In this document: one piece after another, positions 18,982-62,625 of the stretch
Layout of the letters: each line of letters begins with the position of its first letter
How positions within the stretch are numbered: the first letter of the stretch is position 1
From: Candidatus Yanofskybacteria bacterium RIFCSPHIGHO2_01_FULL_41_26
GTDB lineage: Bacteria > Patescibacteriota > Minisyncoccia > 2-02-FULL-40-12 > GWA2-44-9
Direction: 5' to 3'
DNA length: 64,000 nucleotides
NCBI GenBank assembly: GCA_001794055.1
Contig: MGJB01000006.1
Span: 26,168 to 90,167 of the forward strand
Made by a program: the position numbers and the translations under genes
The notes under the pieces: model-generated
The model's database searches: none
What the model was told of the DNA's origin: nothing
What the model saw: only the letters and a program-made list of their open reading frames with translations

Positions 18982-18982
18982 A

Positions 18983-23174: not shown

Positions 23175-23203
23175 TTGACAATACAATTTTTTTTATTTAA
23201 AGT
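23175..23203 (+). promoter_or_regulatory. Candidate sigma-70 promoter: TTGACA, 17-nt spacer, TAAAGT. GGAG SD lies 5 nt before the ATG at 23239.
   Basis: Seen in sequence: ttgaca atacaattttttttatt taaagt. The -10 box is weak. Confidence 0.3.
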
Positions 23204-23238
23204 ATTTCTTATTCTTTAACAATTGCAGTGGAGTAACA

Positions 23239-25122: not shown

Positions 25123-25156
25123 CCGTCTTCAGTGACGGTTTTAATTTGCTTTTTTC
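25121..25156 (+). terminator. Rho-independent terminator: aaccgtc-ttcagt-gacggtt hairpin followed by a T-rich tract (ttaatttgcttttttcc).
   Basis: 7-bp stem directly at the stop of the TPP enzyme gene. T-tract downstream. Confidence 0.5.
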
Positions 25157-25172
25157 CTTTATTTCGTATAAT
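25146..25172 (+). promoter_or_regulatory. Candidate promoter TTGCTT, 15-nt spacer, TATAAT. It ends only about 8 nt before the ATG at 25181, so the transcript may be leaderless.
   Basis: Seen in sequence: ttgctt ttttcctttatttcg tataat ttttaaca ATG. No SD is present. Confidence 0.3.
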
Positions 25173-25180
25173 TTTTAACA

Positions 25181-25729: not shown

Positions 25730-25734
25730 TCAGT

Positions 25735-27103: not shown

Positions 27104-27119
27104 AAAATAGGAGAACACC

Positions 27120-29248: not shown

Positions 29249-29276
29249 AAAGAACTCCGAATGAGTTCTTTTTTAT
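29247..29276. terminator. Bidirectional rho-independent terminator between convergent genes: aaaagaactc-cgaat-gagttctttt.
   Basis: 7-10 bp stem flanked by an A-run upstream and a T-run downstream, so it is symmetric. It lies exactly between the stop at 29248 (+) and the stop at 29276 (-). Confidence 0.55.
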
Positions 29277-38513: not shown

Positions 38514-40658
38514 ATGTCGCCAAAAATAATACCCCTTTCAGTTGTGGCTGAGAGTCCCCCACCAATGACCGTTACCCGCCCCAATAGAAAAATAAAAATA
38601 GGCCCCGTCCAGCTTAACAACAGTTTTTCAGAACAATCATATTTCCCAACTTCTGTTGGTATGCTTCAAGCATATGGACAGAAGCATTTAACCCATGCTG
38701 ATTTTTTTGAATTTCTACTTATTATAAAAGATTTCATGCCTATATCAGAAGCCGTGGATAGACTACGCGATGCCCATATTTTAGCCCTCAGTTTGTATGT
38801 TTGGAATTTTGAAAACTCTATAGCCATTGCCAAAGAGTTTAAGAAACGTTATCCGAAAAGATTAGTAGTTGTCGGTGGACCCCACGTCCCTGACAGCAAG
38901 AAACAATTTGTCAGAATAAAGAAAACTGACCCGCAATCCGATGAGCTAAAAAGAAAAAGGATGGGAATGACTGAAAAATTCCACAGAGATCATCCAGAGA
39001 TTGACATAGCTGTTCATGGTGAAGGCGAAAGAATTTTTAAAATGATATTGGAGCAGTTCCCCAACAATCTCGCCGATAAAAGCCAAATCCAGTCGATTAG
39101 CTACATAGATACTGAGGGCAACTTCCACCATAATCCAAAGCTTGAGAGGATGCATGATCTGTCCGAAGTTCCATCACCATACCTTACCGGCGTGTTTGAT
39201 CCGCTTATGGCCGCATACCCCGATCAGAAATGGATTGCCATGTGGGAAACTGACCGCGGCTGTCCTTATCAATGCACCTACTGCGATTGGGGTGGTGCTA
39301 TTGAGGATAAAATTAGCCTCTTCGCCATGGATCGTATTATTAAAGAAGCCTGGTGGTTTGCGAATAATAGGGTGCCGTATGTCTTTATTGCTAACGCCAA
39401 CTTTGGTCTTCCAAAACAGGATGTACAAATTGCAAAAATCTTGGCCGAAGTCAAAAAAGCCACTGGATACCCCGAAGGCGTATCCGTTCAGAATGCAAAA
39501 AATCCTAAGCCACACACATTAGAAGCCCTGGAAATTCTCCAAGAAGCTGGACTGAACAAAGCAACCGTAATGTCAATTCAGTCAAAAAACAAAGATACCC
39601 TCGGAGCAGTTCGCCGACAAAATATGAAGCCTGAAGAATATCAGTCAATTCAAAAAAGGTTAAGAGCTCAAGGTGTAAATACAATGACTGATTATATTCT
39701 TGGCATGCCCATGGAAACGTACGAAAGCGTATTACAAGGTGTTTCTAATATCATTGATGACGGACAACATGATAGAATTCAGTTTAACAATCTTTCCATA
39801 CTACCCAATGCAGAAATGGGCGATCCGGAATACCAAGAAGAGTACGGGATGGAAATGATTAGGACACCAATTACGAACATCCACGGCAAGAAAAATGCAT
39901 CCATCAGCGGTATTGAAGAATATCAAGAATTGGTTATTGCAACTAATACCATGCCCCGAGAGGCATGGGTCAAGACTCGTTCATTTTGCTATTTGGTGGG
40001 ATTGATCTACTTTAATAAGCTTCTTCAGATACCCATTATGATCTTACATGAAATTTATGAGATCCCTTACCGCATAATATTTGAGGCTTTTATGGAAAGT
40101 CCGGGACAGTCAGATAAATTCCCAGTTTTTAAAGAAATTCTAGACTTCTTTCAGGAATTTTCTCGGGGCATTCAAAATGGCACAAACGAGGAGTTCTTCC
40201 ACTCAAAGGAGTGTCTGGACATTCTGTGGCCGCCAGACGAATATGCATTTATAAAAGTATGCAAAGATGGCAAGATCAGACAATTTTACGAAGAAGCTGA
40301 GAAAATGATGTTGGATCTTCTCAAGCCTGACCAAACCCCTGAACCCCTTCTTGATGCCGTAAAACTTAACAGCTTACTAATTAAGTTGCCTTTTCAAACC
40401 ACCGATTTGGAAATAAATTTATCTTACAACGTTTGGGAAGTTTACAAGGCCGCCCGCATAGAGCAAAAATTAGAACTTCAACGAGGAATCTACAACTATC
40501 ACGTTGACAGGACAACTAAGTCAATGTCCTCACACATAAATGCAAGGTGGGATTCGTGGGAAGAGTGGTATGAAAAGATGGTCTGGTGGTGCAATCGAGG
40601 GGGTGCTTATCTTTACGGAAACATCAATCCGCATCAAGAAATAGTCGGACATCATTAA
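38514..40658 (+). CDS. Cobalamin-binding (class B) radical SAM protein, copy 4 (714 aa, long C-terminal extension).
   Basis: B12-binding N-terminus (ILALSLYVWN...RLVVVGGPHVP). Radical SAM motif GCPYQCTYCDWGG. GAGGGG SD. Confidence 0.75.
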   Translation: MSPKIIPLSVVAESPPPMTVTRPNRKIKIGPVQLNNSFSEQSYFPTSVGMLQAYGQKHLTHADFFEFLLIIKDFMPISEAVDRLRDAHILALSLYVWNFENSIAIAKEFKKRYPKRLVVVGGPHVPDSKKQFVRIKKTDPQSDELKRKRMGMTEKFHRDHPEIDIAVHGEGERIFKMILEQFPNNLADKSQIQSISYIDTEGNFHHNPKLERMHDLSEVPSPYLTGVFDPLMAAYPDQKWIAMWETDRGCPYQCTYCDWGGAIEDKISLFAMDRIIKEAWWFANNRVPYVFIANANFGLPKQDVQIAKILAEVKKATGYPEGVSVQNAKNPKPHTLEALEILQEAGLNKATVMSIQSKNKDTLGAVRRQNMKPEEYQSIQKRLRAQGVNTMTDYILGMPMETYESVLQGVSNIIDDGQHDRIQFNNLSILPNAEMGDPEYQEEYGMEMIRTPITNIHGKKNASISGIEEYQELVIATNTMPREAWVKTRSFCYLVGLIYFNKLLQIPIMILHEIYEIPYRIIFEAFMESPGQSDKFPVFKEILDFFQEFSRGIQNGTNEEFFHSKECLDILWPPDEYAFIKVCKDGKIRQFYEEAEKMMLDLLKPDQTPEPLLDAVKLNSLLIKLPFQTTDLEINLSYNVWEVYKAARIEQKLELQRGIYNYHVDRTTKSMSSHINARWDSWEEWYEKMVWWCNRGGAYLYGNINPHQEIVGHH

Positions 40659-41790: not shown

Positions 41791-42678
41791 ATGAATAATC
41801 CCAAAGTAAGTATCGTCATTCCAACATATGGACGAGCGGAATATATCAAGAACTTGATAAAATCCGTGAGGATGTCGACACCAGAAGAGTCCTACGAATT
41901 TGTAGTGGTTTCTTCAGATTTGCCAGAATCAGAAAAAGTAAAGTGGCTCTCACAGCAAAGCGATGTTAATTTAATCTTAGCCGACACCAGAAAAGAATGG
42001 CAGCTAAGGAAAAGAAGTCCGATCTACTACACAAACATCGGGATCAAAAGGGCTAAATACGAATGGATATTCCTGGTAAACGATGACATACGCTTTGATG
42101 AAAACTGGTACAAAGAACTTCAAAGCTTGCTTGCTGATCCCAAAAATTCAAATGTCGGAATGATAATAGTATTGACACACTTGGGCAAGGTTAAATATGG
42201 TCCCCGGCTCATAAAAATAGGAAAAACAAGGAAAAATGGCAAAGACTGGAAAGATCTGTATTTGTCGGACTTTAGTATTATATCAAAAAGCGTTATGGAA
42301 CAGATTGGCTATTTTGATGAAAAATTGAAATGGCACGGTTGCGGTGCTGACAATTCGCTTGCGGTTGAGTTTTTAACGGACAAAGATACGGTCATATCGG
42401 AAAAGATAAAAATAGACCACCTTATCGCCAATGAAGGCAGGGATACGAATGTTACGGACGAATTTACAGACTTTAATTACCTGCTCAATAAATGGAATAA
42501 TTGGTGCAAAATGAATGGTTGCGAATATGTATGGAATGTAAAAATTAAACCTTACACTTTATACAACAGAATTATTAATTGGACCGAGGGCTCTATCAGA
42601 AAACAATTAAAGACGATAAGATTTTATAAAAAATATATCTTGAAAAACAGAACATCAAAAAACAAAACCCAAGTTTAG
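41791..42678 (+). CDS. GT2 family glycosyltransferase.
   Basis: VSIVIPTYGRAEYIKNLIKSV. DxD-like FLVNDDIRF. Confidence 0.7.
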   Translation: MNNPKVSIVIPTYGRAEYIKNLIKSVRMSTPEESYEFVVVSSDLPESEKVKWLSQQSDVNLILADTRKEWQLRKRSPIYYTNIGIKRAKYEWIFLVNDDIRFDENWYKELQSLLADPKNSNVGMIIVLTHLGKVKYGPRLIKIGKTRKNGKDWKDLYLSDFSIISKSVMEQIGYFDEKLKWHGCGADNSLAVEFLTDKDTVISEKIKIDHLIANEGRDTNVTDEFTDFNYLLNKWNNWCKMNGCEYVWNVKIKPYTLYNRIINWTEGSIRKQLKTIRFYKKYILKNRTSKNKTQV

Positions 42679-43403
42679 TTATTTTTAGGAATATATATGA
42701 ACAGTCCTTGTCCGAATAGGCCCGGCCAAAGACGATTAAGGAGATGAATCCCCTCATAGGTACATAGTTTGTAATTTTTTATTCCCATTTCATTTAGCCA
42801 CCATCTCATATCTTTAGCCGTCCAAAACCTCAAATGCTCTGATGGACGTAAGCGCCACTGTAAAGGAAATCTGCCGAACAATAAACGCAGGCGATGGAAC
42901 AAAAATCCGGTATTGGGTACGGAGAAAAACACTCCTTTTTTTGCCTTATCGAGAGCCCATTCAAGCATCTCTTCAGAATTAGGAATGTGCTCTAAAATTT
43001 CAAACATAAAAATATAATCAACAGACGGAATGTCTTTTAGCGTCTCCTGCTTGGAAATATCCACCCGCATCGCCTGAATTCCGTTTTCTTCGGCCATCTT
43101 CAATGCTTCTTCTGATATATCGGCTACTGTCATTTTGGCCAGAGATTTGGTGTTGTTAATATAAAGCAAAACTCTCCCATTTCCGCCTCCGAGATCAAGG
43201 ACGGAAGTGTTTTTTTCTAAATATCGTATGGCAAGATCGGCTCTCTTTTTCTGAAAACTGTTAAGAGGAGTTTGTGCAGTTAATTTACGATGTCGCCAAT
43301 AATCATCATAATCCGTCCCTCGCCATTGAAGTTTTGGATAATGAAAAAGCGAAACAATAAACTGCTTATAAGGATATAATTTTTCTTTTAGATTTTTAAT
43401 CAT
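42675..43403 (-). CDS. Class I SAM-dependent methyltransferase.
   Basis: Motif I VLDLGGGNGRVL. Acidic residue after beta-2 (ADISEE). Confidence 0.7.
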   Translation of the reverse strand: MIKNLKEKLYPYKQFIVSLFHYPKLQWRGTDYDDYWRHRKLTAQTPLNSFQKKRADLAIRYLEKNTSVLDLGGGNGRVLLYINNTKSLAKMTVADISEEALKMAEENGIQAMRVDISKQETLKDIPSVDYIFMFEILEHIPNSEEMLEWALDKAKKGVFFSVPNTGFLFHRLRLLFGRFPLQWRLRPSEHLRFWTAKDMRWWLNEMGIKNYKLCTYEGIHLLNRLWPGLFGQGLFIYIPKNN

Positions 43404-44350
43404 TTATATGCGATAACAAGAGATATTTCTTTTCTGAATGGATTTAAAAATTTTGTATAGATCCTGTTTTTTACTTCAAGGCCGAATTTGTGATCATATC
43501 GCTTTTCCGGCAAGTATTCATCAACAAATAGTTGAACACGAATAGACAATAAAGATATTATTTTTTTTATTAAAACCGCTAAAAATCCTCCTCCATTTGT
43601 TTTGTTAAGATAAAAATAGTCCATTCTAGAGAATCCCGCTCCTTTTAAGAATTCCTGCCAATCCTTCAGCCGGTATTCCCTTTCGCCATTCATTCTTCTA
43701 GTCAATTTTTGACCCAACGGTAACCCAAATCGCTTTTTATAATCCTCTCCATACTCGGTATCCAGCAATTCATCCAAGTCCTGTTTTTCATAATGATCAG
43801 GTCTGGCTTTATCAAAACAAAAAACAAAACCGTCCTTTTTTAAAATTCTCCGACATTCTTTTAGGGTAATCGCGAGATCATTAGAGTGGTGCAAAGAGAA
43901 AAAATCAAAAATAAAATCAACTGATTCATCAGGCAATTCTATCTCGTCAAAACTTCCCACAACCCCGATGACTTTGTCGGTCTGGCCATTAAAAATATAT
44001 CCTGATATTTTGGGCATCAAAGTTTCCACTATCGGACGGCAGACCTCAACCCCATAGACTTTTTCAACGTTTTTTCTTCCCGCCAGGATCGAACTAAAGG
44101 TTCCGGGCCCAGAACCAACCTCAAGCCCAACTCCAGAAATCTTTCTTTTCAAAAACTTACTCTCAACAAAATCAAACATATTTTCTATATCTTTTACCGT
44201 AACATCCGGAACCACCCCGTCAAACGTAAGCTCTCTGATAATCTGCAGGGGCTCCTTGTCTTTAAGTTTTAGGGCATAGTTGGTCCTATAATTATCATCG
44301 GCCTCTTTTTGTAGCTCCGATTTTATGCGCCAATATAATTTTTCCATCAC
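43400..44350 (-). CDS. Class I SAM-dependent methyltransferase.
   Basis: Motif I GLEVGSGPGTFSSILAG. Motif post-I VYGVEVC. It overlaps its neighbour by 4 nt, so the two are translationally coupled. Confidence 0.7.
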   Translation of the reverse strand: MMEKLYWRIKSELQKEADDNYRTNYALKLKDKEPLQIIRELTFDGVVPDVTVKDIENMFDFVESKFLKRKISGVGLEVGSGPGTFSSILAGRKNVEKVYGVEVCRPIVETLMPKISGYIFNGQTDKVIGVVGSFDEIELPDESVDFIFDFFSLHHSNDLAITLKECRRILKKDGFVFCFDKARPDHYEKQDLDELLDTEYGEDYKKRFGLPLGQKLTRRMNGEREYRLKDWQEFLKGAGFSRMDYFYLNKTNGGGFLAVLIKKIISLLSIRVQLFVDEYLPEKRYDHKFGLEVKNRIYTKFLNPFRKEISLVIAYK

Positions 44351-44408: not shown

Positions 44409-45554
44409 CTACAGCCTGCCTTCAGCAATAGCAATGAGCTTATCGGCAACTACCTTAGTAGCTTTTTCAGTCGGTGCTTGCCAATTTACAAGTAATTGTT
44501 TTTGAATAGCCGGATCAAGCGCTTTTTCTATCTCCGGACCAACTTGGTCAGCCGACCAGGCGACTAGAGATTGTCCGGTTCGGATATCGGGCAAATATGG
44601 TCTTGTCTGGCCCAATTCTTTCTCGAACCATCTTTGTGCCAATGGCCCGCAAAGATGAACCACCGGCGGCCCGCCCATCATCACATTCTTGATATCTTCG
44701 GTGCAGGTAACGGACAAGATCACATCAGAGGCAAGGCACAAATCTTCAGCTCGCATATTTCTCATGTCGTCGTTATCTTGAACAATAATAGTATCGGGTA
44801 CGCATATTTCCAACATTTTCCTTAATTCCTCTACATAGCCGGCACTTACGGTTTGGTTGAGCTTGGGGTGAATTCTTGGAACAAGCCGAATATTACCCGC
44901 TTTTTCCAATGATTCTAACTCGGAAAGATAGCTTAAACCATGAAACAACATGCATACATCCTCCGAAATTACGTCGAGCATACCTTGCGACCACCAAAGG
45001 ATAACAATATCTTCTTCCGGAAGCCGGCATAATGTTTCACGAGCTTTTAGTCTAATTTCTTTTTTTTGGGGAATATAATCTAGGACACTGTCAAATGCGG
45101 GCTGGCCGACAATTACTATTCCTCGCGGATCAAGTTTAGGACGAAGCCTCCTTATCGCTTGAGCATGACCTTCGTTTATTGCAAACCAATAAAGGCGATT
45201 ATCATAAGGCACGACCCGCCATTTTGAAAAACCATGATTAAATAAGCCATCCGAACCCATCACGACCAAAGCATTGCCAACCGTATCCAAAAGAACCCGC
45301 TCTTCCAGTTTTGAGGCACTGGCGCATGTATTTATAAAAACCAAATCCGCAGAATCGAGAAGTTCTTTTGTTAATTCTGAATTTACATCTGTTCGAAAGA
45401 ATATTCCGGCCTTTTTAAGAACATCGGCTCCGTTTCCTTCGGGATCAGCCAGCATATCAACCGCATGACCCCGAGCGACAAGATCTTGTCTTACCGGCAA
45501 CTGATAGGTAGCCCCACCAATATCGCCACTGACAAAAACAAACTTTTTTGTCAA
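44409..45554 (-). CDS. Hypothetical protein, possibly a GT-B/epimerase-like Rossmann fold. It is conspicuously G+C-richer than its neighbours.
   Basis: 381 aa. Alternating beta-alpha pattern (FVFVSGDIGG..., IVIVGQPAFD...). No recognisable signature. Codon usage is rich in GCC/CGG/CTG-type codons, unlike the surrounding AT-rich genes. Confidence 0.3.
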   Translation of the reverse strand: MTKKFVFVSGDIGGATYQLPVRQDLVARGHAVDMLADPEGNGADVLKKAGIFFRTDVNSELTKELLDSADLVFINTCASASKLEERVLLDTVGNALVVMGSDGLFNHGFSKWRVVPYDNRLYWFAINEGHAQAIRRLRPKLDPRGIVIVGQPAFDSVLDYIPQKKEIRLKARETLCRLPEEDIVILWWSQGMLDVISEDVCMLFHGLSYLSELESLEKAGNIRLVPRIHPKLNQTVSAGYVEELRKMLEICVPDTIIVQDNDDMRNMRAEDLCLASDVILSVTCTEDIKNVMMGGPPVVHLCGPLAQRWFEKELGQTRPYLPDIRTGQSLVAWSADQVGPEIEKALDPAIQKQLLVNWQAPTEKATKVVADKLIAIAEGRL

Positions 45555-45649: not shown

Positions 45650-46246
45650 TTATAAATCTCTTTCTATCTGATCGCACAATAAATGAATTATCGTCTGGTG
45701 GGCTTCTTGAATACGAGCAGTATCTGAATGAGGGACAATTACGGGTACATCGACAAGACGTAATAGATTTTTAGTTTTCTCGCTAAACAAACCGATGGTG
45801 ATAGCTCCTTGTTTACGAGCAAACAGAAAACCATTTTCTATGTTTTTAGAATGATCTTCGCTGACATCACTCGTAGTTAAACCAACAACCACATCTCCGG
45901 ACCGACATAATGCTTCAATTTGTCTTGAGAAAACAGAACTGAAACCGGAATCATTGCTTTGGGCAGTGATAATTGATGTATCTGTGGTCAATGCGATTGC
46001 GGCAATAGCTCGTCTTTTCTTCCTAAATTGACAAACTAATTCAGCTACGAAATGTTGGGCTTGAGCGGCAGAACCGCCATTGCCGAATATCAGTATTTTG
46101 CTCCCTTTTCTCGCTGTCAACGACAAAATTTCAGCCGCCTCCAAAATTGAAGAATGGAGTATCTGATCGGCCTGCAGGCTTTGAACTAGAAGAACTGACT
46201 CGTCGAACCACCTCACTATCTCCGATAGATTATCTTGTCGGGTCAT
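45650..46246 (-). CDS. gmhA: Sedoheptulose-7-phosphate isomerase (GmhA; SIS-domain phosphoheptose isomerase).
   Basis: ILIFGNGGSAAQAQHFVAEL...DVVVGLTTS. 198 aa. SIS fold. Confidence 0.8.
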   Translation of the reverse strand: MTRQDNLSEIVRWFDESVLLVQSLQADQILHSSILEAAEILSLTARKGSKILIFGNGGSAAQAQHFVAELVCQFRKKRRAIAAIALTTDTSIITAQSNDSGFSSVFSRQIEALCRSGDVVVGLTTSDVSEDHSKNIENGFLFARKQGAITIGLFSEKTKNLLRLVDVPVIVPHSDTARIQEAHQTIIHLLCDQIERDL

Positions 46247-47220
46247 TAGAAATCCTTTATTCTTCGCAATTTTTTCATCGTTTCTTCTTCTGACGGATGC
46301 ACTTTTTTCAGGCCATTGCCCTGCACCACTTCCAGGCGACGTATCTCATCAACTAAATGCTTGAACTCAGCCGGCTCTAGGCTTGCCTTATGATCACTGC
46401 CCGGCATATTCCGATCAAGAGTAATATGTCTTTCAACCATACACGCTCCCTTAGCCACAGCGCAAAGAGACGGCAAGGTGTTGTTCTCGTGTCCACTGTA
46501 ACCAATAGGCACCCCAGGGAACATAATCTTAAGAGTTTTTATCATATTCAGATTAATTTCATCATCCTTGCAGGGATAATTGGCTACACAATGAAGAATA
46601 ACAAGATCCTCGCGACCCAAAATATCAACGGCTTTGGCGATCTGTTCCATGCTACTTCCGCCAGTGGAAAGTATGACCAGCTTGCCATTATATCTCACCC
46701 GCTTAAGAAGGTCACTGTGTGTTAAACACGCCGAAGCAATCTTGTGGCATGGCACGTTAAAACCATTAATGAAGTGGGCGCTCAAGCCGTCCCAGCTTGA
46801 AGCAAACCACATAATGCCCTTTTCCTGGCAGTATTGGTCTATGATGTCGTATTCTTTCATATTAAATTCAAGAGCATACTTAAGATCGCCATTAGTGGTG
46901 TTGGTTATATCCTCACGCAACCTTTGAACCGCGGAATCATCGGGGAAAACTTCCCACTCAACGCCCTCAATATTCATTCTTGCAAAAGCTTTATGAATAA
47001 TACTAGGGTCAACTTTTCGGAACTTGTTCAGCTCTTCCTTGGAATACACAACATTTACGGTTCTTTTTTGAAATTTTACGGCGTCACAGCCGGCCGCAAT
47101 AGCCGCATCAATCAACTTTTTAGTAATCTCCAAACTGCCATTATGGTTAATTCCGATTTCAGCAACCATAAAACATGGATAACCAGGACCAATTAATTTA
47201 TTTCCTATCCTGACAACCAT
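46246..47220 (-). CDS. Second NeuB-family synthase (nonulosonic/ulosonic acid synthase paralog) with SAF domain.
   Basis: FMVAEIGINHNGSLEITKKLIDAAIAAGCDAVKFQKRT. 324 aa. C-terminal SAF-like tail. Clearly paralogous to the gene at 12873-13919. Confidence 0.8.
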   Translation of the reverse strand: MVVRIGNKLIGPGYPCFMVAEIGINHNGSLEITKKLIDAAIAAGCDAVKFQKRTVNVVYSKEELNKFRKVDPSIIHKAFARMNIEGVEWEVFPDDSAVQRLREDITNTTNGDLKYALEFNMKEYDIIDQYCQEKGIMWFASSWDGLSAHFINGFNVPCHKIASACLTHSDLLKRVRYNGKLVILSTGGSSMEQIAKAVDILGREDLVILHCVANYPCKDDEINLNMIKTLKIMFPGVPIGYSGHENNTLPSLCAVAKGACMVERHITLDRNMPGSDHKASLEPAEFKHLVDEIRRLEVVQGNGLKKVHPSEEETMKKLRRIKDF

Positions 47221-47324
47221 TTAATCCTCGGATTTGATGTAAATGAACTTGACAAGAACAATAAGATAAAAAAGCCGGCCTATCAATATTGACTTAGTAA
47301 ATTAATATGGTATTAATTGAGACT

Positions 47325-48164
47325 CTATGTGACGGTCAATCCGCCGTCTATAATAATATTTTGACCGGTAATATAAGAGGATGAGTCTGACGCCAAAAAA
47401 ATAATTGCGCCAGTCAAGTCGGTTGGATGCCCCATTCTTTTAAGTAAGATCTTTTTATAAAGCCGTTCCAAAACTGGATTCTTGGAAGTAATAGAATTAT
47501 AAGTTTTTCCTTCTAAATTAGGAATGGCCCCCGGAGAAACGGCATTGACTCTTACTTCTGGGCTTAAAAAAGAAGCGGAATATTTTGTAAATTGTAACAA
47601 ACCAGCTTTAGCCATACTGTACCCCGGCGGATTAAATTTATCAGTCCCCTCATAAAGGTCTGGGCCTGGAACAACTACTCCGTACATTGAACAAACATTA
47701 ATTATGGAACCAGCACCCCTCTTTTTCATTGGATAGCCTAATATTTGAGTAGCATGAATCGCCCAATATATCCCCGATTCAAAAGATGCCTTAAGCTGAT
47801 CATGGGTCGCATTCTCAAGCTTGCCGCTTGGATCATTAAAACCAGTTTTCAAACTGAAGTCGAAAGCATTATTAATCAGAACATCAATTTTTTTGACTTT
47901 TTTTAATATTTTTTTATACGATGTTTCGGTATTTTTATGGTCATACAAGTCAACCTCGCACCAATCTAGTTTACTTTTTCCGTATTTTTTCCCTAATTCT
48001 TTTTTAAAATCTAAACCTGTGCCAGGCCTGTCTATAACTATTAATCTGTCGGCTCCTTGGTCTAATACTGCCTTAGAAAAATATTTGCCAAAAAAGCCGG
48101 CGCCGCCAGTTAATAAAACCGTTTTCCCTTTTAAGCTAAACGGGGCAAGTTTATTTTTTTTCAT
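47325..48164 (-). CDS. SDR family oxidoreductase.
   Basis: VLLTGGAGFFGKYFSKAVL. YSMAKAGL (YxxxK). Confidence 0.75.
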   Translation of the reverse strand: MKKNKLAPFSLKGKTVLLTGGAGFFGKYFSKAVLDQGADRLIVIDRPGTGLDFKKELGKKYGKSKLDWCEVDLYDHKNTETSYKKILKKVKKIDVLINNAFDFSLKTGFNDPSGKLENATHDQLKASFESGIYWAIHATQILGYPMKKRGAGSIINVCSMYGVVVPGPDLYEGTDKFNPPGYSMAKAGLLQFTKYSASFLSPEVRVNAVSPGAIPNLEGKTYNSITSKNPVLERLYKKILLKRMGHPTDLTGAIIFLASDSSSYITGQNIIIDGGLTVT

Positions 48165-48738
48165 ATTTGTTATAAATATTTTCGTAATCCTCCCCTCTTG
48201 TTTTCATAATAACATCACACACTTCTCTTACCGCATGATCTCCACCCCTCTTTGTCGTTACATAATCAGCAATTTTTTTGCATTGTTCTGCGCCATCAGC
48301 AACGGTAAGAGCCAAGCCGGCATCTTCTAAACAGTCAAGATCGTTCAGGTCATCTCCCATAAAAGCAGCCTCGCTGGCTTTAAGTTTTTCGCGCTTAATC
48401 AAATTCCTAAATATTGGTAGTTTTTCATTACCGACCAAACACTCAATTTTTAGCTTCTCGCAGCGTTTCATTACAATAGGATTAGGCTCCATAGAGATCA
48501 CTGCTAGCTTGATACCAATCCTTTTTAATTGATTAGTTCCCAAACTATCTCGCCGGCTGCAAATAATACTCTCTCGACCATCTTGGTCAATTATAACTTT
48601 CGCATCAGTAAAAATACCATCAAAATCGAAGGCCATAAGTTTTATATTTTTTATTTTTTTAGCAAGTTCGGCTGAAATTTTCACGTAATTAAAGTAGCAT
48701 AATAATCGGTTTCTGTCTACATAAAAAAGCGCCAACAA
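48151..48738 (-). CDS. HAD-IIIA phosphatase, KdsC-like (3-deoxy-ulosonate-phosphate phosphatase family), copy 1.
   Basis: LMAFDFDGIFTDAKV (DxDGxxTDG motif of the KdsC/YrbI family). GDDLNDLDCLEDAG motif. Confidence 0.7.
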   Translation of the reverse strand: MLALFYVDRNRLLCYFNYVKISAELAKKIKNIKLMAFDFDGIFTDAKVIIDQDGRESIICSRRDSLGTNQLKRIGIKLAVISMEPNPIVMKRCEKLKIECLVGNEKLPIFRNLIKREKLKASEAAFMGDDLNDLDCLEDAGLALTVADGAEQCKKIADYVTTKRGGDHAVREVCDVIMKTRGEDYENIYNKYEKK

Positions 48739-48750
48739 ATTAAGCCGACG

Positions 48751-49362
48751 CTATATATTATCCCTATACTTAAAATAAAGAAATACTATCGAAACTAAAA
48801 TTAGGGTATTCATGGAGGAGATTATTTTAAGCGGCAAATTGCCAAAGGCAAAGTAAAAAGTCACCCAGAAAAATGCCCCCACTAGATAAGCCAGGAAAAG
48901 CTTGATATCCAGAACACTGACATTCTTCTCTTTGTATATCTCCAGCGGTTGCATTGCAAAAGGTATCATACGAAGAAAAGCCAGAGCCATAAAAAAACCC
49001 GTCTTGGCTGGAATTAACACCAGTACGGGCGTCATCAGAAAAAATATCGGAATTAACAATTTCTCAATCCTACTGAAACCCTTAAATTTATATAAGCCCA
49101 CAAGTATTGGCACATGCATTGCAGTCAACAAAACACTCGTAATTGGCATGATTATGCTTCCTATAAAATATCCGTAGACACCGTTTAATAAAAAGAATGC
49201 TGGTGTTGAAGAAAATTTTAGTATGGAAACAGATTGGCCAGATTTATTTGACCAGATCAGTTTATTTTGAGACCACAATCCGCATGCTTGCCACAAGGTA
49301 AAAATTAGGGTCGCTATAGAACTTAAGGTAAGAATATTCCAGCCTAAATTTTCCAGTTCCAT
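48751..49362 (-). CDS. Hypothetical integral membrane protein (about 6 TM).
   Basis: Multiple hydrophobic helices. No recognisable motif. Confidence 0.4.
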   Translation of the reverse strand: MELENLGWNILTLSSIATLIFTLWQACGLWSQNKLIWSNKSGQSVSILKFSSTPAFFLLNGVYGYFIGSIIMPITSVLLTAMHVPILVGLYKFKGFSRIEKLLIPIFFLMTPVLVLIPAKTGFFMALAFLRMIPFAMQPLEIYKEKNVSVLDIKLFLAYLVGAFFWVTFYFAFGNLPLKIISSMNTLILVSIVFLYFKYRDNI

Positions 49363-49364
49363 TT

Positions 49365-50114
49365 CTATAGTTTCCTCGCCTGCTCTAGGATCTTGACTGA
49401 TTCGATCTTGCGCTTTTCAGTTTCTCCCTCACTAAGCATGTTTCCGTCCAAGAACGAGAGTACCTCGGTCCGTTGTCGCGCTAATCCAACTGGCGACTCG
49501 TCAGAAGTATTAAGATATAGAGGGACATATCCAATTGGCGGAACCTCGATCTGCCTAGCTCCGCGTAAATAACCTTCGAAGTCAAAAACGCTGGCATTGG
49601 TAATATTTCCCACTGTTTCTATCTCTCTAAGACGATAATTAATTCTTCGCCTAACGGTTTCTAGGTCACAATAGAAATAAATGCATCGAAAATCTACTTC
49701 TACCGATAGTTCGGGCATCGACCAGCCGGCCTGTTCTGCTTCTTCTTTTTCAATAGATTGTAAATAAAAACTCGCGCTTTTGATCATTTCCACGAAAGGC
49801 CTCTGGTGCGCTTCCCGAGTCAGCATTACCATCTCCGTGAAAATGGCGAACGGTCTTTCAACAATCAATTTGGACTTTATTTCAAATCTAGTTGCCTCAT
49901 TCTTGAAAACATGACTGCTTTTTGTTATTTCAGTATCGCTCTTATCGCCCCATAGACGCTTGCGAATATCATCCATGGCTACCATTGAAGCTTCTTTATA
50001 CTCCGGTAAGCCCATTACCCAATTCCTGAAAAATGATTTTCCGCTGAAAACCAAGCCCGAGAAAACGGCAACAAGGATTCGACGCTGGTGGCTAACGACC
50101 ACTTGATCCTCCAT
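49365..50114 (-). CDS. Hypothetical P-loop NTPase/kinase.
   Basis: Walker A-like GLVFSGKS near the N-terminus. Otherwise unassigned. Confidence 0.35.
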   Translation of the reverse strand: MEDQVVVSHQRRILVAVFSGLVFSGKSFFRNWVMGLPEYKEASMVAMDDIRKRLWGDKSDTEITKSSHVFKNEATRFEIKSKLIVERPFAIFTEMVMLTREAHQRPFVEMIKSASFYLQSIEKEEAEQAGWSMPELSVEVDFRCIYFYCDLETVRRRINYRLREIETVGNITNASVFDFEGYLRGARQIEVPPIGYVPLYLNTSDESPVGLARQRTEVLSFLDGNMLSEGETEKRKIESVKILEQARKL

Positions 50115-50215
50115 TTAAGATTTTCAAAGAATTATCATGGTTATAACAATAATTATTTCGCTTGTCAAATCATATTTCTTGTGTTATTTTTCTTGTGTTA
50201 ACTACTCCCCCAATT

Positions 50216-50737
50216 ATGAACTCGGCCAGCAAGAATCTGCTCAAAAAGTTAAAAAAACTTAAGCTCATAGCTTTTGATTTTGATGGTATCTTTACTGATG
50301 GCAAGGTTATTACTAACCAAGACGGAATTGAACGTATACTCTACAGTTCAAAAGATGACCAGGGTATTAAAAATCTAAAAAAACAAGGACTCAGATTGGT
50401 CGTAATTTCAAAAGAACCCAATTCAATAGTTGCCATAAAATGTAAAAAAACAGGCATTGAATATGCCCACAATATTTTGGATAAATTAAGTTTATTTAAA
50501 AAAATACTGCACAAGTATGGAATAAAACCCTCTGAAGCCGCTTTTATGGGAGATGACTTCAACGACTTAGAATGCATGAGATATGCTGGTGTTTCGTTTA
50601 CTGTTGTCGATGCTTATCCGGCTTGCCTTGACGTAGCTGACTATACGACCAAAAGCAGCGGTAACCATACTATAAGTGAAATAGTTGATCTGATTATTGG
50701 CGCCAAACAAAAAGCTCACAGTAAAGTGAGCTCATAA
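50216..50737 (+). CDS. HAD-IIIA phosphatase, KdsC-like, copy 2.
   Basis: LIAFDFDGIFTDGKV. GDDFNDLECMRYAG. The ORF track start at 50162 is a TTG. The ATG at 50216 is in frame and more plausible. Confidence 0.7.
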   Translation: MNSASKNLLKKLKKLKLIAFDFDGIFTDGKVITNQDGIERILYSSKDDQGIKNLKKQGLRLVVISKEPNSIVAIKCKKTGIEYAHNILDKLSLFKKILHKYGIKPSEAAFMGDDFNDLECMRYAGVSFTVVDAYPACLDVADYTTKSSGNHTISEIVDLIIGAKQKAHSKVSS

Positions 50738-50743
50738 TAGACC

Positions 50744-51307
50744 TTAGCGAAGGCTCTTGGCCTCAAGTATTAAGTCGCAGACCTCCCTAACGGCCCGATC
50801 ACCGCCATCTCGCTTTGTAATATGCAGAGAAACTAATTTTGCTTCTGGTAAGGCATCGGCAACCGTAGCAGGAAAGCCAACTGCCCTAAGAACAGGCAGA
50901 TCGCTTATATCATCTCCCATATAACAAACCTCATCGAGACTTATGTCCGGATGTTTTTCATTTAGCCAACTTTGCAGCCCTGCAAGTTTATCACTTACCT
51001 TTACACAGGGAATACCTAGTTTGAAACAACGGGCATCTACATATCCGCTGCGCTGTTTGGTAACAACAACGACATGAATGCCGGCTTCTTTCATTAAATC
51101 AATTCCCTGACCGTCCCGATGGTTAAATCTTGCAATCTCAATTACATGCTGAAACTTACGGTCATTATGCTTCATCGCATGTTCAAGATCCATAATTACT
51201 CCGGTGTCTAAATGAAGCGGGGCCATAATACCATCGCAATCAAGAGCAAGAACTTTTATGTTTCGGAGTTTATCGAGTAATTTTTTGTCCATGCATGACT
51301 CCTTCAA
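50744..51307 (-). CDS. HAD-IIIA phosphatase, KdsC-like, copy 3 (divergent).
   Basis: VLALDCDGIMAP...VVVVTKQRSG...GDDISDLPVLRAVG. Confidence 0.65.
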   Translation of the reverse strand: MKESCMDKKLLDKLRNIKVLALDCDGIMAPLHLDTGVIMDLEHAMKHNDRKFQHVIEIARFNHRDGQGIDLMKEAGIHVVVVTKQRSGYVDARCFKLGIPCVKVSDKLAGLQSWLNEKHPDISLDEVCYMGDDISDLPVLRAVGFPATVADALPEAKLVSLHITKRDGGDRAVREVCDLILEAKSLR

Positions 51308-51419: not shown

Positions 51420-53144
51420 GTGTCAAAAATAATAACCCTGACTAAGGCCGACAAAAACGGAGATCCGTGCAACACTGTCCACCCAGCCGACATTATCAAA
51501 GACATAAAACCTAAAGACATTGAAGGAGTAAATTTACTTTTTATCAACATGCCTCTTCGGGAAACGGCCGTTCCCAACACTACCCCTGAAGGACCACTAT
51601 TGATGGCGACTAACCTTAGAGACAATTACGGCGTCAACGCTACGATAGTAGACCTCAACGCTTACAGAATAAAAGATGAGACTGCAAACCAAAGAAACTT
51701 GCCCAACGGTAGGCACAAGACCCAGCAAGAGGCTTGTGACTTAATTGAAAAACACACCAAAATCCATGGGGAACCTGATGTTGTAGCTTTGTCGGGAATG
51801 ATCACAACTTTGAGCTGGCAAGAGACCATCTCTCAATTCATAAGACGGTCATTACCAAATTCTTTCCTTGTCTCCGGCGGCGGATTAGCAACTGATCTGA
51901 AAACGGGTCTTTTTAATTACATCCCTGAACTTGATGCCATAGCCCATTCGGAAGGTGACGATGTAATAGTAAAAATTTGCCACGACGCAAAGATTATAAG
52001 ACAAAATGGATTTAACAGCGCTTTAAATTCCAGAAAACTTGATCCGTATTATCTTGGACATATTAATAATCGACACCGTCTGATGTACGCCGGCTACAGA
52101 CCTCGCAGTCTAGATGCTATTCCCTTTGCAGATTTGGAATTCCTGCGGGAAGATGTTAATGGATTCAGAGTGCTTGATTATTATTTGGGCAACGCCGTTT
52201 GGGGCATGTCTGCCAATAACAGTTCGGCAGCGCCATTTACAATGACTATAAGCACGACATCGGTCTCCAGCCGAGGATGTCCGTTTGCCTGTAATTATTG
52301 CGACAGACAAGCTCAGGGCGAGAGAAATTGGGGTATTAGGTCAGCAGAACATATTTACGCAGAAATGATCCATCATTTTATGAAATACCATATTGATTTT
52401 AAAGGTTTTCCGGACGATAACTTCGCTGTCGCAATTCCCAGGATCGAAGAACTTGTACCACTACTCGGGCCTTTGGGGATATCATGGGGAACTCACACGA
52501 GAATGGATGAAGGGGCAGATCCTCGAAGAATCAAGCCCATGGCTCAAGCAGGATGTATTTATATTGGCTTTGGACCCGAGAGTGCAAACGCCAAAGACTT
52601 GGTAGCGATTAATAAGGGCGGTCACACACTTTCGAATGGATTCGAAGAGTGTAAAGTGTTTGGCAAAACATATAACTTTCCTAAATCCATGACGATTGCA
52701 ACAAGAAACTGCCTGGAATTTGGAATTCATGCAAACTGTACCTACATTATGGGAATTCCCGGACAAACATTAGAAAGTTTAAAAGATACGGTGGGTTTTA
52801 TGGCGTGGCAAGAAGAAGAGTATGCAAAATATGGGATCCCGGCTGAAGCAGTAAACAAGCGAATGTTTACCTTAACAGCTTATCCCACAGAACTGATGAA
52901 AGTACCTATAGTACAAGATAAATTACGCAAGGTTTTCGGAATCAATTTTGATCCTGAAACTCATATGCCAATTTGCGACGATAATTTTCATAAATACTGT
53001 CGAGAATTAGATGACGCAACAAAGATAATGCATGATCCGCTAACCGGTGAGCCGTTAAATTACAGTGATATTCCCATAGATCAATTTCTTCAGGCTAGGG
53101 AACATATCGACTCCGGCCAGACATTAAAGATATTGGATATGTAA
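51420..53144 (+). CDS. Cobalamin-binding (class B) radical SAM protein, copy 5.
   Basis: B12-binding-like N-terminal domain (LLFINMPL...VVALSGMITT...VSGGGLAT). Radical SAM motif GCPFACNYCDRQ. GTG start 6 nt after GAGGGAGG SD. Candidate promoter TTGTGT/TAGTAT upstream. Confidence 0.7.
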   Translation: MSKIITLTKADKNGDPCNTVHPADIIKDIKPKDIEGVNLLFINMPLRETAVPNTTPEGPLLMATNLRDNYGVNATIVDLNAYRIKDETANQRNLPNGRHKTQQEACDLIEKHTKIHGEPDVVALSGMITTLSWQETISQFIRRSLPNSFLVSGGGLATDLKTGLFNYIPELDAIAHSEGDDVIVKICHDAKIIRQNGFNSALNSRKLDPYYLGHINNRHRLMYAGYRPRSLDAIPFADLEFLREDVNGFRVLDYYLGNAVWGMSANNSSAAPFTMTISTTSVSSRGCPFACNYCDRQAQGERNWGIRSAEHIYAEMIHHFMKYHIDFKGFPDDNFAVAIPRIEELVPLLGPLGISWGTHTRMDEGADPRRIKPMAQAGCIYIGFGPESANAKDLVAINKGGHTLSNGFEECKVFGKTYNFPKSMTIATRNCLEFGIHANCTYIMGIPGQTLESLKDTVGFMAWQEEEYAKYGIPAEAVNKRMFTLTAYPTELMKVPIVQDKLRKVFGINFDPETHMPICDDNFHKYCRELDDATKIMHDPLTGEPLNYSDIPIDQFLQAREHIDSGQTLKILDM

Positions 53145-53170
53145 CCGATTCGAAAGAATCGGTTTTTTGT
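53143..53170 (+). terminator. Rho-independent terminator: aaccgattc-gaaa-gaatcggtt plus TTTTTTG.
   Basis: 9-bp stem overlapping the stop codon, followed by a T-tract. Confidence 0.55.
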
Positions 53171-53208
53171 GTATTGAAAAAAACGGGATTTACTGTATTA
53201 TTACAAGA

Positions 53209-53931
53209 ATGAAAATTATAGGCATAATCCCCGCCCGGGGAGGTTCAGAAAGAGTTCCTAATAAAAATTTAAAAAACTTCTGCGGAAAACCGCTAGTTGC
53301 CTGGACAATTTTAGGCGCCAAAAAATCCAAACATTTGGACAGGGTAATTGTTTCAACCGACAGTCCAGCAATCGCTAAAATAGCTAAAAAACATGGAGCC
53401 GAAGCGCCGTTTCTAAGGCCTGCAGAATTTGCCACATCAACTATTGGTGTTGAACCGACTCTCAAACATACCTATGAGTGGCTACTGAAAAACGAGGCCT
53501 ACAAAACTGATGCTTTAGTGCTTTTGATGCCTACCAGTCCCCTGCGCCAAACATTTCATATAGATGACGCAATTGAAATTTTCAAAAATAAAAAAGCTGA
53601 CTCGGTTGTTGGGGTTAACGAGACTCCGGCTAACCACACTCCTTACTGGACATTAATTAGATCGCGCAAAGGCAAGGTTGTTCTCTGGGGAGGAATACCG
53701 CTAAAAAATATAATCACCCGCCGGCAGGACTTCCCACAGAAATGTTACGCAAGAAACGACCTTGTTTATGTATTAAAACCTAAAAACCTTTTTGAAAAAA
53801 AGCCCAATCTTTACGGCAAAAAAGTTGAACTTTATATAACCGCTGATCCGGTACTTTATGAAGCTGACATAAACACGCCAGATGAGTGGGAAGACGCAGA
53901 AATAAAATTCAAAAGATTACAAAAAAAATAA
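53209..53931 (+). CDS. Second CMP-ulosonic acid synthetase (acylneuraminate cytidylyltransferase family).
   Basis: MKIIGIIPARGGSERVPNKNLKNFCGKPLVAWTI. The ORF track start is 53167. The ATG at 53209 fits the family N-terminus. Confidence 0.8.
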   Translation: MKIIGIIPARGGSERVPNKNLKNFCGKPLVAWTILGAKKSKHLDRVIVSTDSPAIAKIAKKHGAEAPFLRPAEFATSTIGVEPTLKHTYEWLLKNEAYKTDALVLLMPTSPLRQTFHIDDAIEIFKNKKADSVVGVNETPANHTPYWTLIRSRKGKVVLWGGIPLKNIITRRQDFPQKCYARNDLVYVLKPKNLFEKKPNLYGKKVELYITADPVLYEADINTPDEWEDAEIKFKRLQKK

Positions 53932-53941: not shown

Positions 53942-54631
53942 ATGAATCCAAATTTTTCTATTGTAATACCGGCCCATAACGAGGCGGAAAACCTGAAGAT
54001 ATTACTGCCAAACCTGATAAAATCCCTTGGCCCCTTGGGTCCCATGTGGGAAATTGTGATGATAGACAACGCCTCAACCGATGACACGATAAAAGTTATA
54101 ACCAGTTTTTCTGAATACGGCAGAGCCATAAAAATTGTTCAAGAACCGACTCTTGGTTATGGACGAGCCGTATTGAAAGGGCTCCAAGAATCATCGGGAA
54201 ACATAGTCGGAATAATAAGAGCCGACAATCAAGAAAAACCGGAAGATTTAGTCTCAATGTTCCGGTTATTTGTTCAAAATAAATGGGATTTCGGTAAAGC
54301 AATAAGAAAATCGAGAAAAGATGATGGATTAAAAAGAATGTTAATAAGCTTATTTTTTAATACCAGCTTCAGAATTCTTTTCGGCTTAAAAGTAAAAGAC
54401 ATAAATGCTACGCCGAAAATATTCACAAGAAAATTGATGAATGAGTTGAAACTAGAATCAAAGGACTGGTTTATTGACGCTGAAATCGTCATCAAAGCGG
54501 TACGAGCCGAAGCTAAAATAGGAGAGGTTGAAATTGAATACTTGCCCAGATTAAAGGGTAAGTCTTCGGTAAGATTCAGGCACATAATACAATTTATAAA
54601 AAATATGCTAATATGGCGTTTGTTGAAATAA
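53942..54631 (+). CDS. GT2 glycosyltransferase (polyprenol-phosphate sugar synthase-like).
   Basis: FSIVIPAHNEAENLKILLP...WEIVMIDNASTDDT. Confidence 0.75.
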   Translation: MNPNFSIVIPAHNEAENLKILLPNLIKSLGPLGPMWEIVMIDNASTDDTIKVITSFSEYGRAIKIVQEPTLGYGRAVLKGLQESSGNIVGIIRADNQEKPEDLVSMFRLFVQNKWDFGKAIRKSRKDDGLKRMLISLFFNTSFRILFGLKVKDINATPKIFTRKLMNELKLESKDWFIDAEIVIKAVRAEAKIGEVEIEYLPRLKGKSSVRFRHIIQFIKNMLIWRLLK

Positions 54632-62521: not shown

Positions 62522-62625
62522 ATGTTTAGAGGAGTAGTATTATTATCTTAAAAAAATGACATTTTTTCAAGTCCGATTAGGCCTTGTAAAAATTGAATTT
62601 TTTAACTAGAATTACCTCTGTAATT

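Follow-up and report, generated by a model that had tools for sequence, protein, structure and literature searches.

Which acidic sugar does the second NeuB-family synthase of a Patescibacteria glycan island serve to make, and would it start from a free or from a phosphorylated sugar? The question is raised by a 64,000-nucleotide stretch (hereafter the window) of contig MGJB01000006.1 from Candidatus Yanofskybacteria bacterium RIFCSPHIGHO2_01_FULL_41_26, a member of the Candidate Phyla Radiation (CPR), which encodes two NeuB paralogs, NeuB1 and NeuB2. We consider it rather probable that NeuB2 and its neighbours form the core for a second 3-deoxy-2-ulosonic acid activated with cytidine monophosphate (CMP), following the phosphorylated-substrate logic of the 2-keto-3-deoxynononic acid (Kdn) or animal type and not the free-sugar logic of NeuB, LegI and PseI. 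A first-pass annotation had named here the NeuB paralog, a short-chain dehydrogenase/reductase (SDR), three HAD phosphatases, GmhA and a kinase; all are intact open reading frames (ORF list) whose family assignments were upheld by Pfam and NCBIfam scans, and one gene, that of a SWEET/PQ-loop-like protein, had been overlooked. The genes at the centre of the question are as follows.

45650-46246, minus strand: GmhA-like SIS isomerase (SIS_2); PRK13936 163 bits and TIGR00441 149 bits, below the equivalog cut-offs of 276 and 209
46246-47220, minus strand: NeuB2, SAF-less NeuB-family synthase; PF03102 242 bits
47325-48164, minus strand: PtmA-like SDR; adh_short_C2, with best NCBIfam matches to PRK09186 and FlagModPtmA weak (95 bits against a cut-off of 350)
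48151-48738, minus strand: HAD1, KdsC/YrbI-type phosphatase; TIGR01670 113 bits
48751-49362, minus strand: SWEET/PQ-loop-like membrane protein with two repeats; partial SemiSWEET_2 match
49365-50114, minus strand: predicted P-loop small-molecule kinase, first gene of the operon; Walker A GLVFSGKS, AlphaFold fold
50216-50737 (alternative start 50162), plus strand: HAD2, KdsC/YrbI-type phosphatase; TIGR01670 100 bits
50744-51307, minus strand: HAD3, KdsC/YrbI-type phosphatase; TIGR01670 87 bits

The P-loop protein, SWEET/PQ-loop-like protein, HAD1, SDR, NeuB2 and SIS genes follow one another in this order as a minus-strand operon from 50114 to 45650, in which the HAD1 and SDR genes share a 14-nt overlap and the stop codon of NeuB2 overlaps the start codon of SIS in TAATG. 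HAD2 and HAD3 are convergent single genes outside the operon, lying between it and a divergent pair of radical S-adenosylmethionine (SAM) enzyme and CMP-transferase genes, and HAD2 is divergent from the kinase gene. Weak scans placed a terminator-like hairpin 3' of SIS and a promoter-like site ahead of the next gene, which encodes a 381-aa protein; since the promoter scan performed no better than chance and the terminator scan was modestly enriched, the operon limits are tentative. An exact-sequence look-up found NeuB2 on 24 or more independent contigs, each with this arrangement of genes, the locus being judged by its layout, and the locus is therefore no assembly artefact. No plasmid matched the region in a megablast search.

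The SAF-less synthase NeuB2 and its phosphatases

The Pfam gathering cut-off for PF03102 is 22 bits, so that the NeuB domain assignment of NeuB2 is secure, and no C-terminal SAF domain, the antifreeze-like part that supplies a substrate-contacting Arg in canonical bacterial NeuB, LegI and PseI, was matched in NeuB2 by the Pfam and NCBIfam scans. Its match to TIGR03569 (241 bits, cut-off 400) stops at model position 277 of 329; NeuB1, in the same window, has the SAF domain and passes TIGR03569. After the KFQKR motif NeuB2 carries about 50 extra residues (residues ~60-117), which form four short helices in an AlphaFold model built on 14 homologs (predicted local distance difference test score, pLDDT, 91), and the conserved C-terminal KLRR is likewise helical. 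The model is a TIM barrel matching NeuB and PseI structures, with the SAF-less Leptospira NeuB 6ncs as the closest structure. Residues K49/K52 (KFQK), K160, S185-T186-G187, H244 and E263-H265 are invariant across 14 clade members, and we take them to correspond to the metal- and phosphoenolpyruvate (PEP)-binding residues of the Neisseria meningitidis enzyme. From sequence and model, NeuB2 is predicted to be a catalytically intact SAF-less NeuB.

The closest relatives of NeuB2 are 52-86% identical and consist of the NeuB domain alone, and all 13 of those with a source label come from Patescibacteria or unclassified bacteria. Nine distinct loci of this CPR subclade were compared, namely the window, L007, L008/9, L010/11, L012, L013, L093, L096 and L097. 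A scan of one genome per species supplied the best 80 further loci, which are top matches and no random sample. Three are CPR loci whose NeuB is 52-71% identical to NeuB2; the SAF-less NeuB proteins encoded by the others are 287-295 aa long and share 44-52% identity with it, and these loci come from Melainabacteria, Chloroflexota, Acidobacteriota, Actinomycetota (including Streptomyces), Bacteroidota, Myxococcota, Verrucomicrobiota, Nitrospirota and Peregrinibacteria. The clade consensus at the C-terminus of the SAF-less proteins is GDGxKxV..sE....KLRR. SAF-less NeuB proteins of environmental bacteria were recorded in a 2021 survey that gave them no function (PMC8208679).

An enzyme of the Kdn-9-phosphate (Kdn-9-P) synthase type (EC 2.5.1.132) with a known substrate is the synthetase of Prymnesium parvum, which accepts mannose 6-phosphate (Man-6-P) as its sole substrate and rejects arabinose 5-phosphate (PMC6200933). 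Its sequence, taken from the supplement of that paper, is of 312 aa, SAF-less, and has KFQKR and a basic motif at the C-terminus. Aligned with NeuB2 it reaches 113 bits, and with NeuB1 78 bits. Neighbour joining, in a tree without support values, joins it to the SAF-less clade, away from the SAF-bearing NeuB/LegI/PseI type, and likewise keeps NeuB2 apart from the SAF-bearing synthases that use free sugars.

The genomic context of the SAF-less proteins is in agreement. The window proteins were compared with the 80 loci by tblastn. In 62 loci (~78%) a KdsC-like HAD lies no more than 1.5 kb from the SAF-less NeuB, and in 67 no more than 6 kb; a CMP-transferase falls inside the 6-kb range in 44 loci. 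SDR genes are present in 36 loci and a GmhA-like SIS in 16. Streptomyces and several others encode, directly upstream of NeuB, one protein in which CMP-transferase and HAD are fused; in the window, three HADs and one CMP-transferase accompany NeuB2. Taken together, phosphatase synteny, membership in the clade of the Man-6-P-specific Prymnesium synthetase and the gene fusions described below support the placing of NeuB2 in a phosphosugar-using NeuB branch, and the phosphorylated-intermediate route of the first-pass annotation is supported by the same lines of context and phylogeny. We propose that the SAF-less NeuB proteins as a whole are this phosphosugar-using branch, recognisable by the neighbouring KdsC-type phosphatase, which would give a function to the proteins left unexplained by the 2021 survey (PMC8208679).

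The phosphatases themselves appear from their sequences to be KdsC-like and not GmhB-like, as had been claimed. The best relatives of all three in the Protein Data Bank (PDB) are KdsC/YrbI structures (KdsC 4um5 is the top match of HAD1, and a KdsC that of HAD3), with the Bacteroides thetaiotaomicron Kdn-9-P phosphatase among the solved relatives and 3ewi, the KdsC-like domain of CMAS, among the matches. A marginal 23 bits to PRK08942 is the GmhB signal of HAD2, and the NCBIfam scan gave no GmhB-type match for HAD1 or HAD3. The subfamily cut-off of TIGR01670 (107 bits) is passed by HAD1, with HAD2 and HAD3 below it. Motifs I-IV (DxD, S/T, K, DD) are kept in all three. The motif DxDGxxTDG, earlier ascribed to each of them, occurs in HAD2 alone: HAD1 reads DFDGIFTDA and HAD3 reads DCDGIMAPLHLD, with an insert of ~16 aa following DxDG. 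The C-terminal GGxGAVRE motif is degenerate in HAD2 (SGNHTISE).

HAD1 and HAD2 share 46% identity, and HAD3 is 33% identical to each. HAD3 is 75% identical to the sole HAD of L097, whose gene is likewise divergent from that of the radical SAM enzyme and stands beside SDR-NeuB, and on account of this identity and position we regard it as the cognate phosphatase of the module. HAD3 is thus the predicted ortholog of a single module phosphatase, with HAD1 and HAD2 as putative lineage-specific extra copies. Three phosphatase copies are unusual, as had been remarked, the related loci having one (L007, L008, L010, L013, L097) or none. A HAD1/HAD2-like gene follows a kinase homolog in L094, and a HAD follows a kinase homolog in L092, which hints at a kinase-phosphatase pairing. 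CPR bacteria are not known as makers of lipopolysaccharide, so these KdsC-like genes would not serve the 3-deoxy-D-manno-octulosonic acid (Kdo) of lipid A.

Proposed pathway, substrate and rival explanations

The catalytic steps, each proposed from the observed gene families, synteny across genomes, clade membership and fusions, would run as follows. The aldose phosphate would come from the GmhA-like isomerase, from phosphorylation of an imported sugar by the P-loop kinase, or from both; the isomerase might convert fructose 6-phosphate to Man-6-P, or sedoheptulose 7-phosphate to glycero-manno-heptose 7-phosphate. NeuB2 would condense the aldose phosphate with PEP to a ulosonate phosphate, most likely Man-6-P to Kdn-9-P, and a KdsC-type phosphatase, with HAD3 as the cognate one, would remove the terminal phosphate. 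Tailoring could involve the SDR (oxidation or epimerisation), the B12-type radical SAM enzyme (methylation at carbon or some other radical chemistry) and two methyltransferases. The CMP-transferase at 53167 would activate the product, and the TagF-like enzyme at 60081, as transferase or polymerase and possibly together with the 381-aa protein, would pass the sugar to a cell-surface polymer or glycoprotein. The genes for these later steps are given below.

51420-53144, plus strand: B12-type radical SAM enzyme; Radical_SAM 45 bits, above cut-off; B12-binding weak, 20 bits against a cut-off of 32
53167-53931, plus strand: second CMP-transferase, PseF-like; CTP_transf_3; PseF 145 bits, below cut-off
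42675-43403, minus strand: MetW-like methyltransferase, from the family scan
43400-44350, minus strand: Methyltransf_23/11 methyltransferase, from Pfam families
44409-45554, minus strand: 381-aa protein without a Pfam match; UniRef name 'UDP-GlcNAc 2-epimerase domain-containing'
60081-61460, minus strand: TagF-like transferase (Glyphos_transf); PF04464, weak BFO_1060-family glycosyltransferase match

The second CMP-transferase had been placed at 53209. It is 30% identical to the Prymnesium CMP-Kdn synthetase, and the radical SAM protein has distant matches to HpnJ, BchE and PhpK. Comparison with the related loci gave no homolog of the 381-aa protein, which may be a candidate transferase of the glycosyltransferase B fold.

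The isomerase is the gene on which the choice of substrate turns. It scores 142 bits against Campylobacter jejuni GmhA (1tk9) and keeps the catalytic motifs GNGGSAAxAQH, TTDTS and RIQExH (compared with 1tk9, 5i01 and 2xbl), and its phosphate loop has a 4-aa insert (TTSDVSEDHSKN) common to L007 alone. Fusions of a KdsC-like HAD to a GmhA-like domain lie beside NeuB in L026, L061 and L065, and among the 150 nearest SIS cluster representatives there are six, and a weak seventh, with a KdsC-like HAD joined to one end or the other. The 680-aa protein P0318 joins CTP_transf_3, Methyltransf_23 and a GmhA-like SIS in one polypeptide, the same three families as in the window, and its CTP_transf_3 part is 39% identical to the Prymnesium CMP-Kdn synthetase. 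Other representatives are fused to PfkB, CTP_transf_like, GmhB-like HAD, GT4 or HldE-type heptose-pathway domains. In a neighbour-joining tree of the 150 SIS domains (190 columns, low resolution), domains encoded in NeuB loci and those joined to a KdsC-like HAD are intermixed with solved GmhAs and heptose-pathway fusions, and no distinct ulosonate-type clade was evident. The intermixed tree and the fusions together tie the isomerase, as judged from these patterns, to the NeuB-HAD-CMP-transferase pathway, leave it unmarked against true sedoheptulose 7-phosphate isomerases, and keep alive a reading in which a heptose is extended to a ten-carbon (C10) acid.

A Man-6-P-fed, Kdn-type core is our tentative first candidate, with a prospect slightly below even; the heptose 7-phosphate route to a C10 acid is possible but unlikely, and what remains falls to other or unrelated substrates. 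The organism would have Man-6-P available, since a GDP-mannose 4,6-dehydratase (Gmd, 62593-63636, plus strand, 451 bits) lies at the island edge, which implies that GDP-mannose is made, and also a 6-deoxyhexose. Several findings weigh against the pathway proposed. The isomerase resembles an ordinary sedoheptulose 7-phosphate isomerase, which tells specifically on the Man-6-P version, and we know of no GmhA-family enzyme that makes Man-6-P. NeuB2 is only 29.5% identical to the Prymnesium synthetase, the single characterised SAF-less enzyme aligned, and the NeuB tree, besides its lack of support values, leaves out BT1714. None of the three HADs reaches the equivalog cut-offs of KdsC (208) and Kdn-9-P phosphatase (180), and three of the nine CPR-clade loci (L012, L093, L096) are missing a KdsC-like HAD. 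The kinase and SWEET-like genes are loosely associated with the module, and the CPR-clade proteins are known from genes alone.

In the heptose-derived pathway, SIS would make D-glycero-D-manno-heptose 7-phosphate, NeuB2 would add PEP to give 3-deoxy-dec-2-ulosonate 10-phosphate, and a HAD and the CMP-transferase would dephosphorylate and activate it, so that C7 would be extended to C10 much as C5 is to C8 for Kdo and C6 to C9 for Kdn. The complete GmhA motifs of SIS, its score to a bona fide GmhA, its place among solved GmhAs and PfkB, GmhB and HldE-type fusions, and its translational coupling to NeuB2 all suit this pathway, and so do minimal cassettes of SIS, CMP-transferase-HAD and NeuB in L039 and L081, where no other heptose-activating gene was present among those scanned nearby, and the cassette of L026, made up of these families but with HAD and SIS as one protein. 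Mass spectrometry has shown C10 ulosonic acids of unexplained origin in Magnetospirillum (bioRxiv 10.64898/2026.04.20.719630), which also speaks for a C10 product. Against the pathway, no 3-deoxy-deculosonic acid of the kind is known to have been structurally described. SIS is absent from 80% of the loci with a SAF-less NeuB and, within the CPR clade, from seven of nine, among them L012 and L097, whose NeuB is 71-72% identical to NeuB2, so that the NeuB substrate must be available there without a local GmhA; the sole characterised SAF-less enzyme uses Man-6-P, and the phosphate-loop insert of the window and L007 SIS could mean an altered substrate. The first-pass annotation had raised a heptose phosphate substrate by linking GmhA to a distant HddA-like kinase; the gene fusions add support to the heptose idea, while the link to that kinase is weak. 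Were a SIS, SAF-less NeuB, KdsC-like HAD and CMP-transferase cassette indeed to lead from sedoheptulose 7-phosphate to a CMP-activated C10 3-deoxy-2-ulosonic acid, which we hold to be possible but unlikely, that acid would be a third and so far undescribed member of the series of Kdo (C8) and Kdn (C9), with its cassette in this CPR bacterium, Chloroflexota, Acidobacteriota, Actinomycetota, Myxococcota and Peregrinibacteria, and it would be additionally C- and O-methylated in CPR.

The neighbours might also be coincidental, with NeuB2 acting on a free sugar, SIS and the HddA-like kinase at 22124 both belonging to a route to a nucleotide-activated heptose, and the HADs and the kinase serving other sugar phosphates. 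The island of ~60 kb is packed with unrelated sugar pathways, a HddA-like GHMP kinase is in the window, the kinase homolog of L092 lies in a different sugar cluster and, as said, some CPR-clade loci have no HAD. We nevertheless find coincidence improbable, given the HAD-NeuB adjacency in 62 of 80 genomes of many phyla, the existence of HAD-SIS and CMP-transferase-methyltransferase-SIS fusions, the stop-start overlap of NeuB2 and SIS, and HADs of KdsC and not GmhB type; the HddA-like gene scores far under its cut-off and lies 23 kb off on the other strand, and NeuB2 is accompanied by no NeuC-like or PseG-like hydrolysing epimerase. More improbable still is a Kdo-type pathway, in which NeuB2 would replace KdsA (arabinose 5-phosphate plus PEP), SIS would be an arabinose 5-phosphate isomerase and the HADs Kdo-8-phosphate phosphatases, giving CMP-Kdo for a capsule-like polymer. 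Isomerase, synthase, KdsC-like phosphatase and CMP-transferase do mirror KdsD/A/C/B, KdsC models are the top NCBIfam matches of the HADs, and a KpsC/S-like Capsule_synth gene stands beside the related cassette L020; yet SIS is of the GmhA type (SIS_2) and not the KdsD type, arabinose 5-phosphate is rejected by the Prymnesium enzyme, and the CMP-transferase resembles PseF/NeuA (145 bits), its scores against KdsB models being far lower.

The module in CPR genomes and the other genes of the window

Returning to the phosphosugar pathway that we favour, its tailoring genes recur through the CPR clade. Eight of the nine loci have orthologs of the radical SAM enzyme (42-60% identity to the window protein), the CMP-transferase (50-81%) and the TagF-like protein (37-54%), eight have an SDR beside NeuB (41-66% in five, ~30% in two) and seven have the Methyltransf_23/11 protein (43-64%); the MetW-like methyltransferase has orthologs in L010, L013 and L096, and Wzx, Wzy_C and Bac_transf genes are usual companions. 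This content of tailoring and surface-polymer genes suggests that the CPR product is probably a methylated, otherwise tailored ulosonic acid carried on a surface polymer. Distant TagF-like relatives (22-26% identity) flank SAF-less NeuB cassettes in Chloroflexota and Acidobacteriota, and other cassettes are flanked by KpsC/S-like or weakly polysialyltransferase-like genes, neighbours that fit with transfer from a CMP-linked donor. Literature searches on nonulosonic acids in Patescibacteria, or on GmhA together with NeuB, returned nothing relevant; the CPR-elaborated module is a variant of the Kdn-type pathway without prior description in the literature searched. CPR or Patescibacteria, with genomes of ~1 Mb, thus spend a conserved gene set on a heavily tailored acidic surface sugar, which is likely relevant to host-cell attachment and phage recognition. 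An identity of SIS and SDR with PtmF and PtmA of the legionaminic pathway was considered and rejected, PtmF being a 326-aa oxidoreductase with no SIS and the PtmA score of the SDR being far below its cut-off.

Further variation was seen in other phyla. The SAF-less NeuB cassette of L061 has a gene for a sulfotransferase-domain protein (11691-12695) that separates the SDR from the HAD-SIS fusion, and sulfation of that ulosonic acid or polymer may take place. A Chloroflexus sp. metagenome-assembled genome (L020, 1519-12200), and similarly L025, L037, L038 and L074, encodes two NeuB paralogs of different SAF-less subclades, the second NeuB of L025 being SAF-bearing. These Chloroflexia clusters hold two CMP-transferases (one fused to a KdsC-like HAD), AP_endonuc_2, a Gfo/Idh/MocA oxidoreductase, an SDR, a GmhA-like SIS, a TagF-like gene and a KpsC/S-like Capsule_synth gene, and each locus would apparently make two phosphosugar-derived ulosonic acids.

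The P-loop protein is predicted from its model to be a small-molecule kinase of Parcubacteria, which bears out the kinase named earlier. Its AlphaFold model (pLDDT 87) matches adenosine 5'-phosphosulfate kinase, gluconokinase and the kinase domain of PFK-2 by Foldseek (probability 1.0, template modelling (TM) score ~0.5, 10-19% identity); it scores 23 bits against Pfam AAA_33, under the cut-off of 27, and single-sequence and profile searches of the PDB gave no match. Walker A GLVFSGKS is invariant. About 22 homologs were detected, and all six with an organism name are from Parcubacteria-group CPR. The three homologs whose context was examined all lie in glycan loci, two with module genes (radical SAM and NeuB in L093; TagF-like, methyltransferase and radical SAM in L094) and one, L092, in a different sugar cluster. 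The SWEET-like protein, of 203 aa and resembling a full-length SWEET, is possibly a sugar transporter; it has 5 homologs among 5.8 billion proteins, one with PF03083, and a homolog in another genome stands among housekeeping genes. With that setting and the varying kinase contexts, a conserved import-and-phosphorylate pair gained no support, and a salvage route of import, phosphorylation and condensation is possible but unsupported.

The first ulosonic-acid branch of the window (8834-17269) has LegB/LegC-like genes, NeuC (TIGR03568 passed), the SAF-bearing NeuB1, a PseF-like CMP-transferase, WbuX and HisH/HisF-like amidotransferase genes, and no HAD phosphatase was found within it. It reads as an ordinary legionaminic-type, acetamidino nonulosonic acid pathway with predicted free-sugar chemistry. 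Adjoining it is an MptE-like/DUF115 protein (18983-20104, minus strand) with a Maf flagellin-glycosyltransferase-type domain, and a neighbouring 593-aa protein (20331-22112, plus strand) gives a weak MptE-like and glycosyltransferase family 2 (GT2) signal. Both may be nonulosonic acid transferases; no flagellar genes were found in the window.

At 22124-29248 lie a HddA-like GHMP kinase, a 627-aa E1-like protein dependent on thiamine pyrophosphate, DJ-1/PfpI, a cupin, HAD_2, a DegT aminotransferase and an epimerase. The kinase (22124-23152), placed near 22148 and called HddA-like in the first-pass annotation, reaches only 154 bits against a cut-off of 600. The Wildermuthbacteria contig L092 (9001-18729) carries, beside its homolog of the P-loop kinase, a comparable set of split E1_dh/Transket_pyr genes, a cupin, a HAD, a GHMP kinase and DegT. 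The 22124-29248 set recalls AviB1/B2- and YerE-type chemistry, and presumably forms a pathway for a two-carbon-branched or chain-extended sugar. The island also holds five B12-binding-type radical SAM genes, at 17419-18999 and 29276-30643 (minus strand) and at 32270-34153, 38514-40658 and 51420-53144 (plus strand), and a HemN-like radical SAM gene (34212-35597, plus strand); such a density of radical sugar-tailoring enzymes is unusual for one 64-kb glycan island. A small GT2 (53942-54631) and a YfhO-family membrane protein (57717-60104), both on the plus strand, form what we take to be a pair of the CsbB/YfhO type, by which polymers resembling teichoic acid are glycosylated extracellularly, and this fits a wall-polymer target.

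Comparison with known systems

The nearest counterpart is the Kdn pathway of B. thetaiotaomicron (BT1713/BT1714) and Prymnesium parvum, in which, as here, a NeuB-family synthase acting on a sugar 6-phosphate works with a KdsC-type C0 HAD and a CMP-transferase; the Prymnesium synthase further shares with NeuB2 the absence of SAF, the KFQKR motif and the basic C-terminal motif. NeuB2 differs in its low identity and its structured insert of ~50 aa, and the module adds a GmhA-like isomerase, SDR, B12-type radical SAM enzyme, two methyltransferases and a P-loop kinase, with three phosphatases in place of one. These additions suggest that the product is probably not plain Kdn.

In Streptomyces, a Kdn-containing teichulosonic acid, a cell-wall glycopolymer of a monoderm, is made from SCO4873-SCO4882 (PMC13011467). 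The Streptomyces loci of our scan, likened to that cluster by genus and not by gene number, encode a SAF-less NeuB 45-46% identical to NeuB2 directly after a fusion of CMP-transferase and KdsC-like HAD, and the TagF-like genes of the CPR module, with their distant relatives in other phyla, recall the wall-glycopolymer product. However, the Streptomyces loci are without SIS, radical SAM enzyme, methyltransferases or kinase.

The Kdo pathway (KdsD-KdsA-KdsC-KdsB) follows the same logic of isomerase, PEP condensation, KdsC-family phosphatase and CMP activation, but the synthase here is of the NeuB family and not KdsA/DAHPS, and the isomerase is GmhA-type and not KdsD-type. The vertebrate route to N-acetylneuraminic acid and Kdn (GNE kinase, NANS, NANP, CMAS) has the same sequence of kinase, phosphosugar synthase, phosphatase and CMP-transferase; NANS, however, keeps the antifreeze/SAF domain, NANP belongs to another HAD subfamily, and the kinase here has a P-loop fold and not that of ROK. 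The SDR resembles the flagellin-modification SDR PtmA of Campylobacter, whose chemistry is poorly defined, and which likewise lies in a ulosonic acid cluster. The best match of the NeuB2 model is the Leptospira borgpetersenii 'sialic acid synthetase' 6ncs (TM 0.85 on the target), an enzyme for which we know of no assigned substrate; it is SAF-less like NeuB2, is of 290 aa, and is without the CPR insert of NeuB2.

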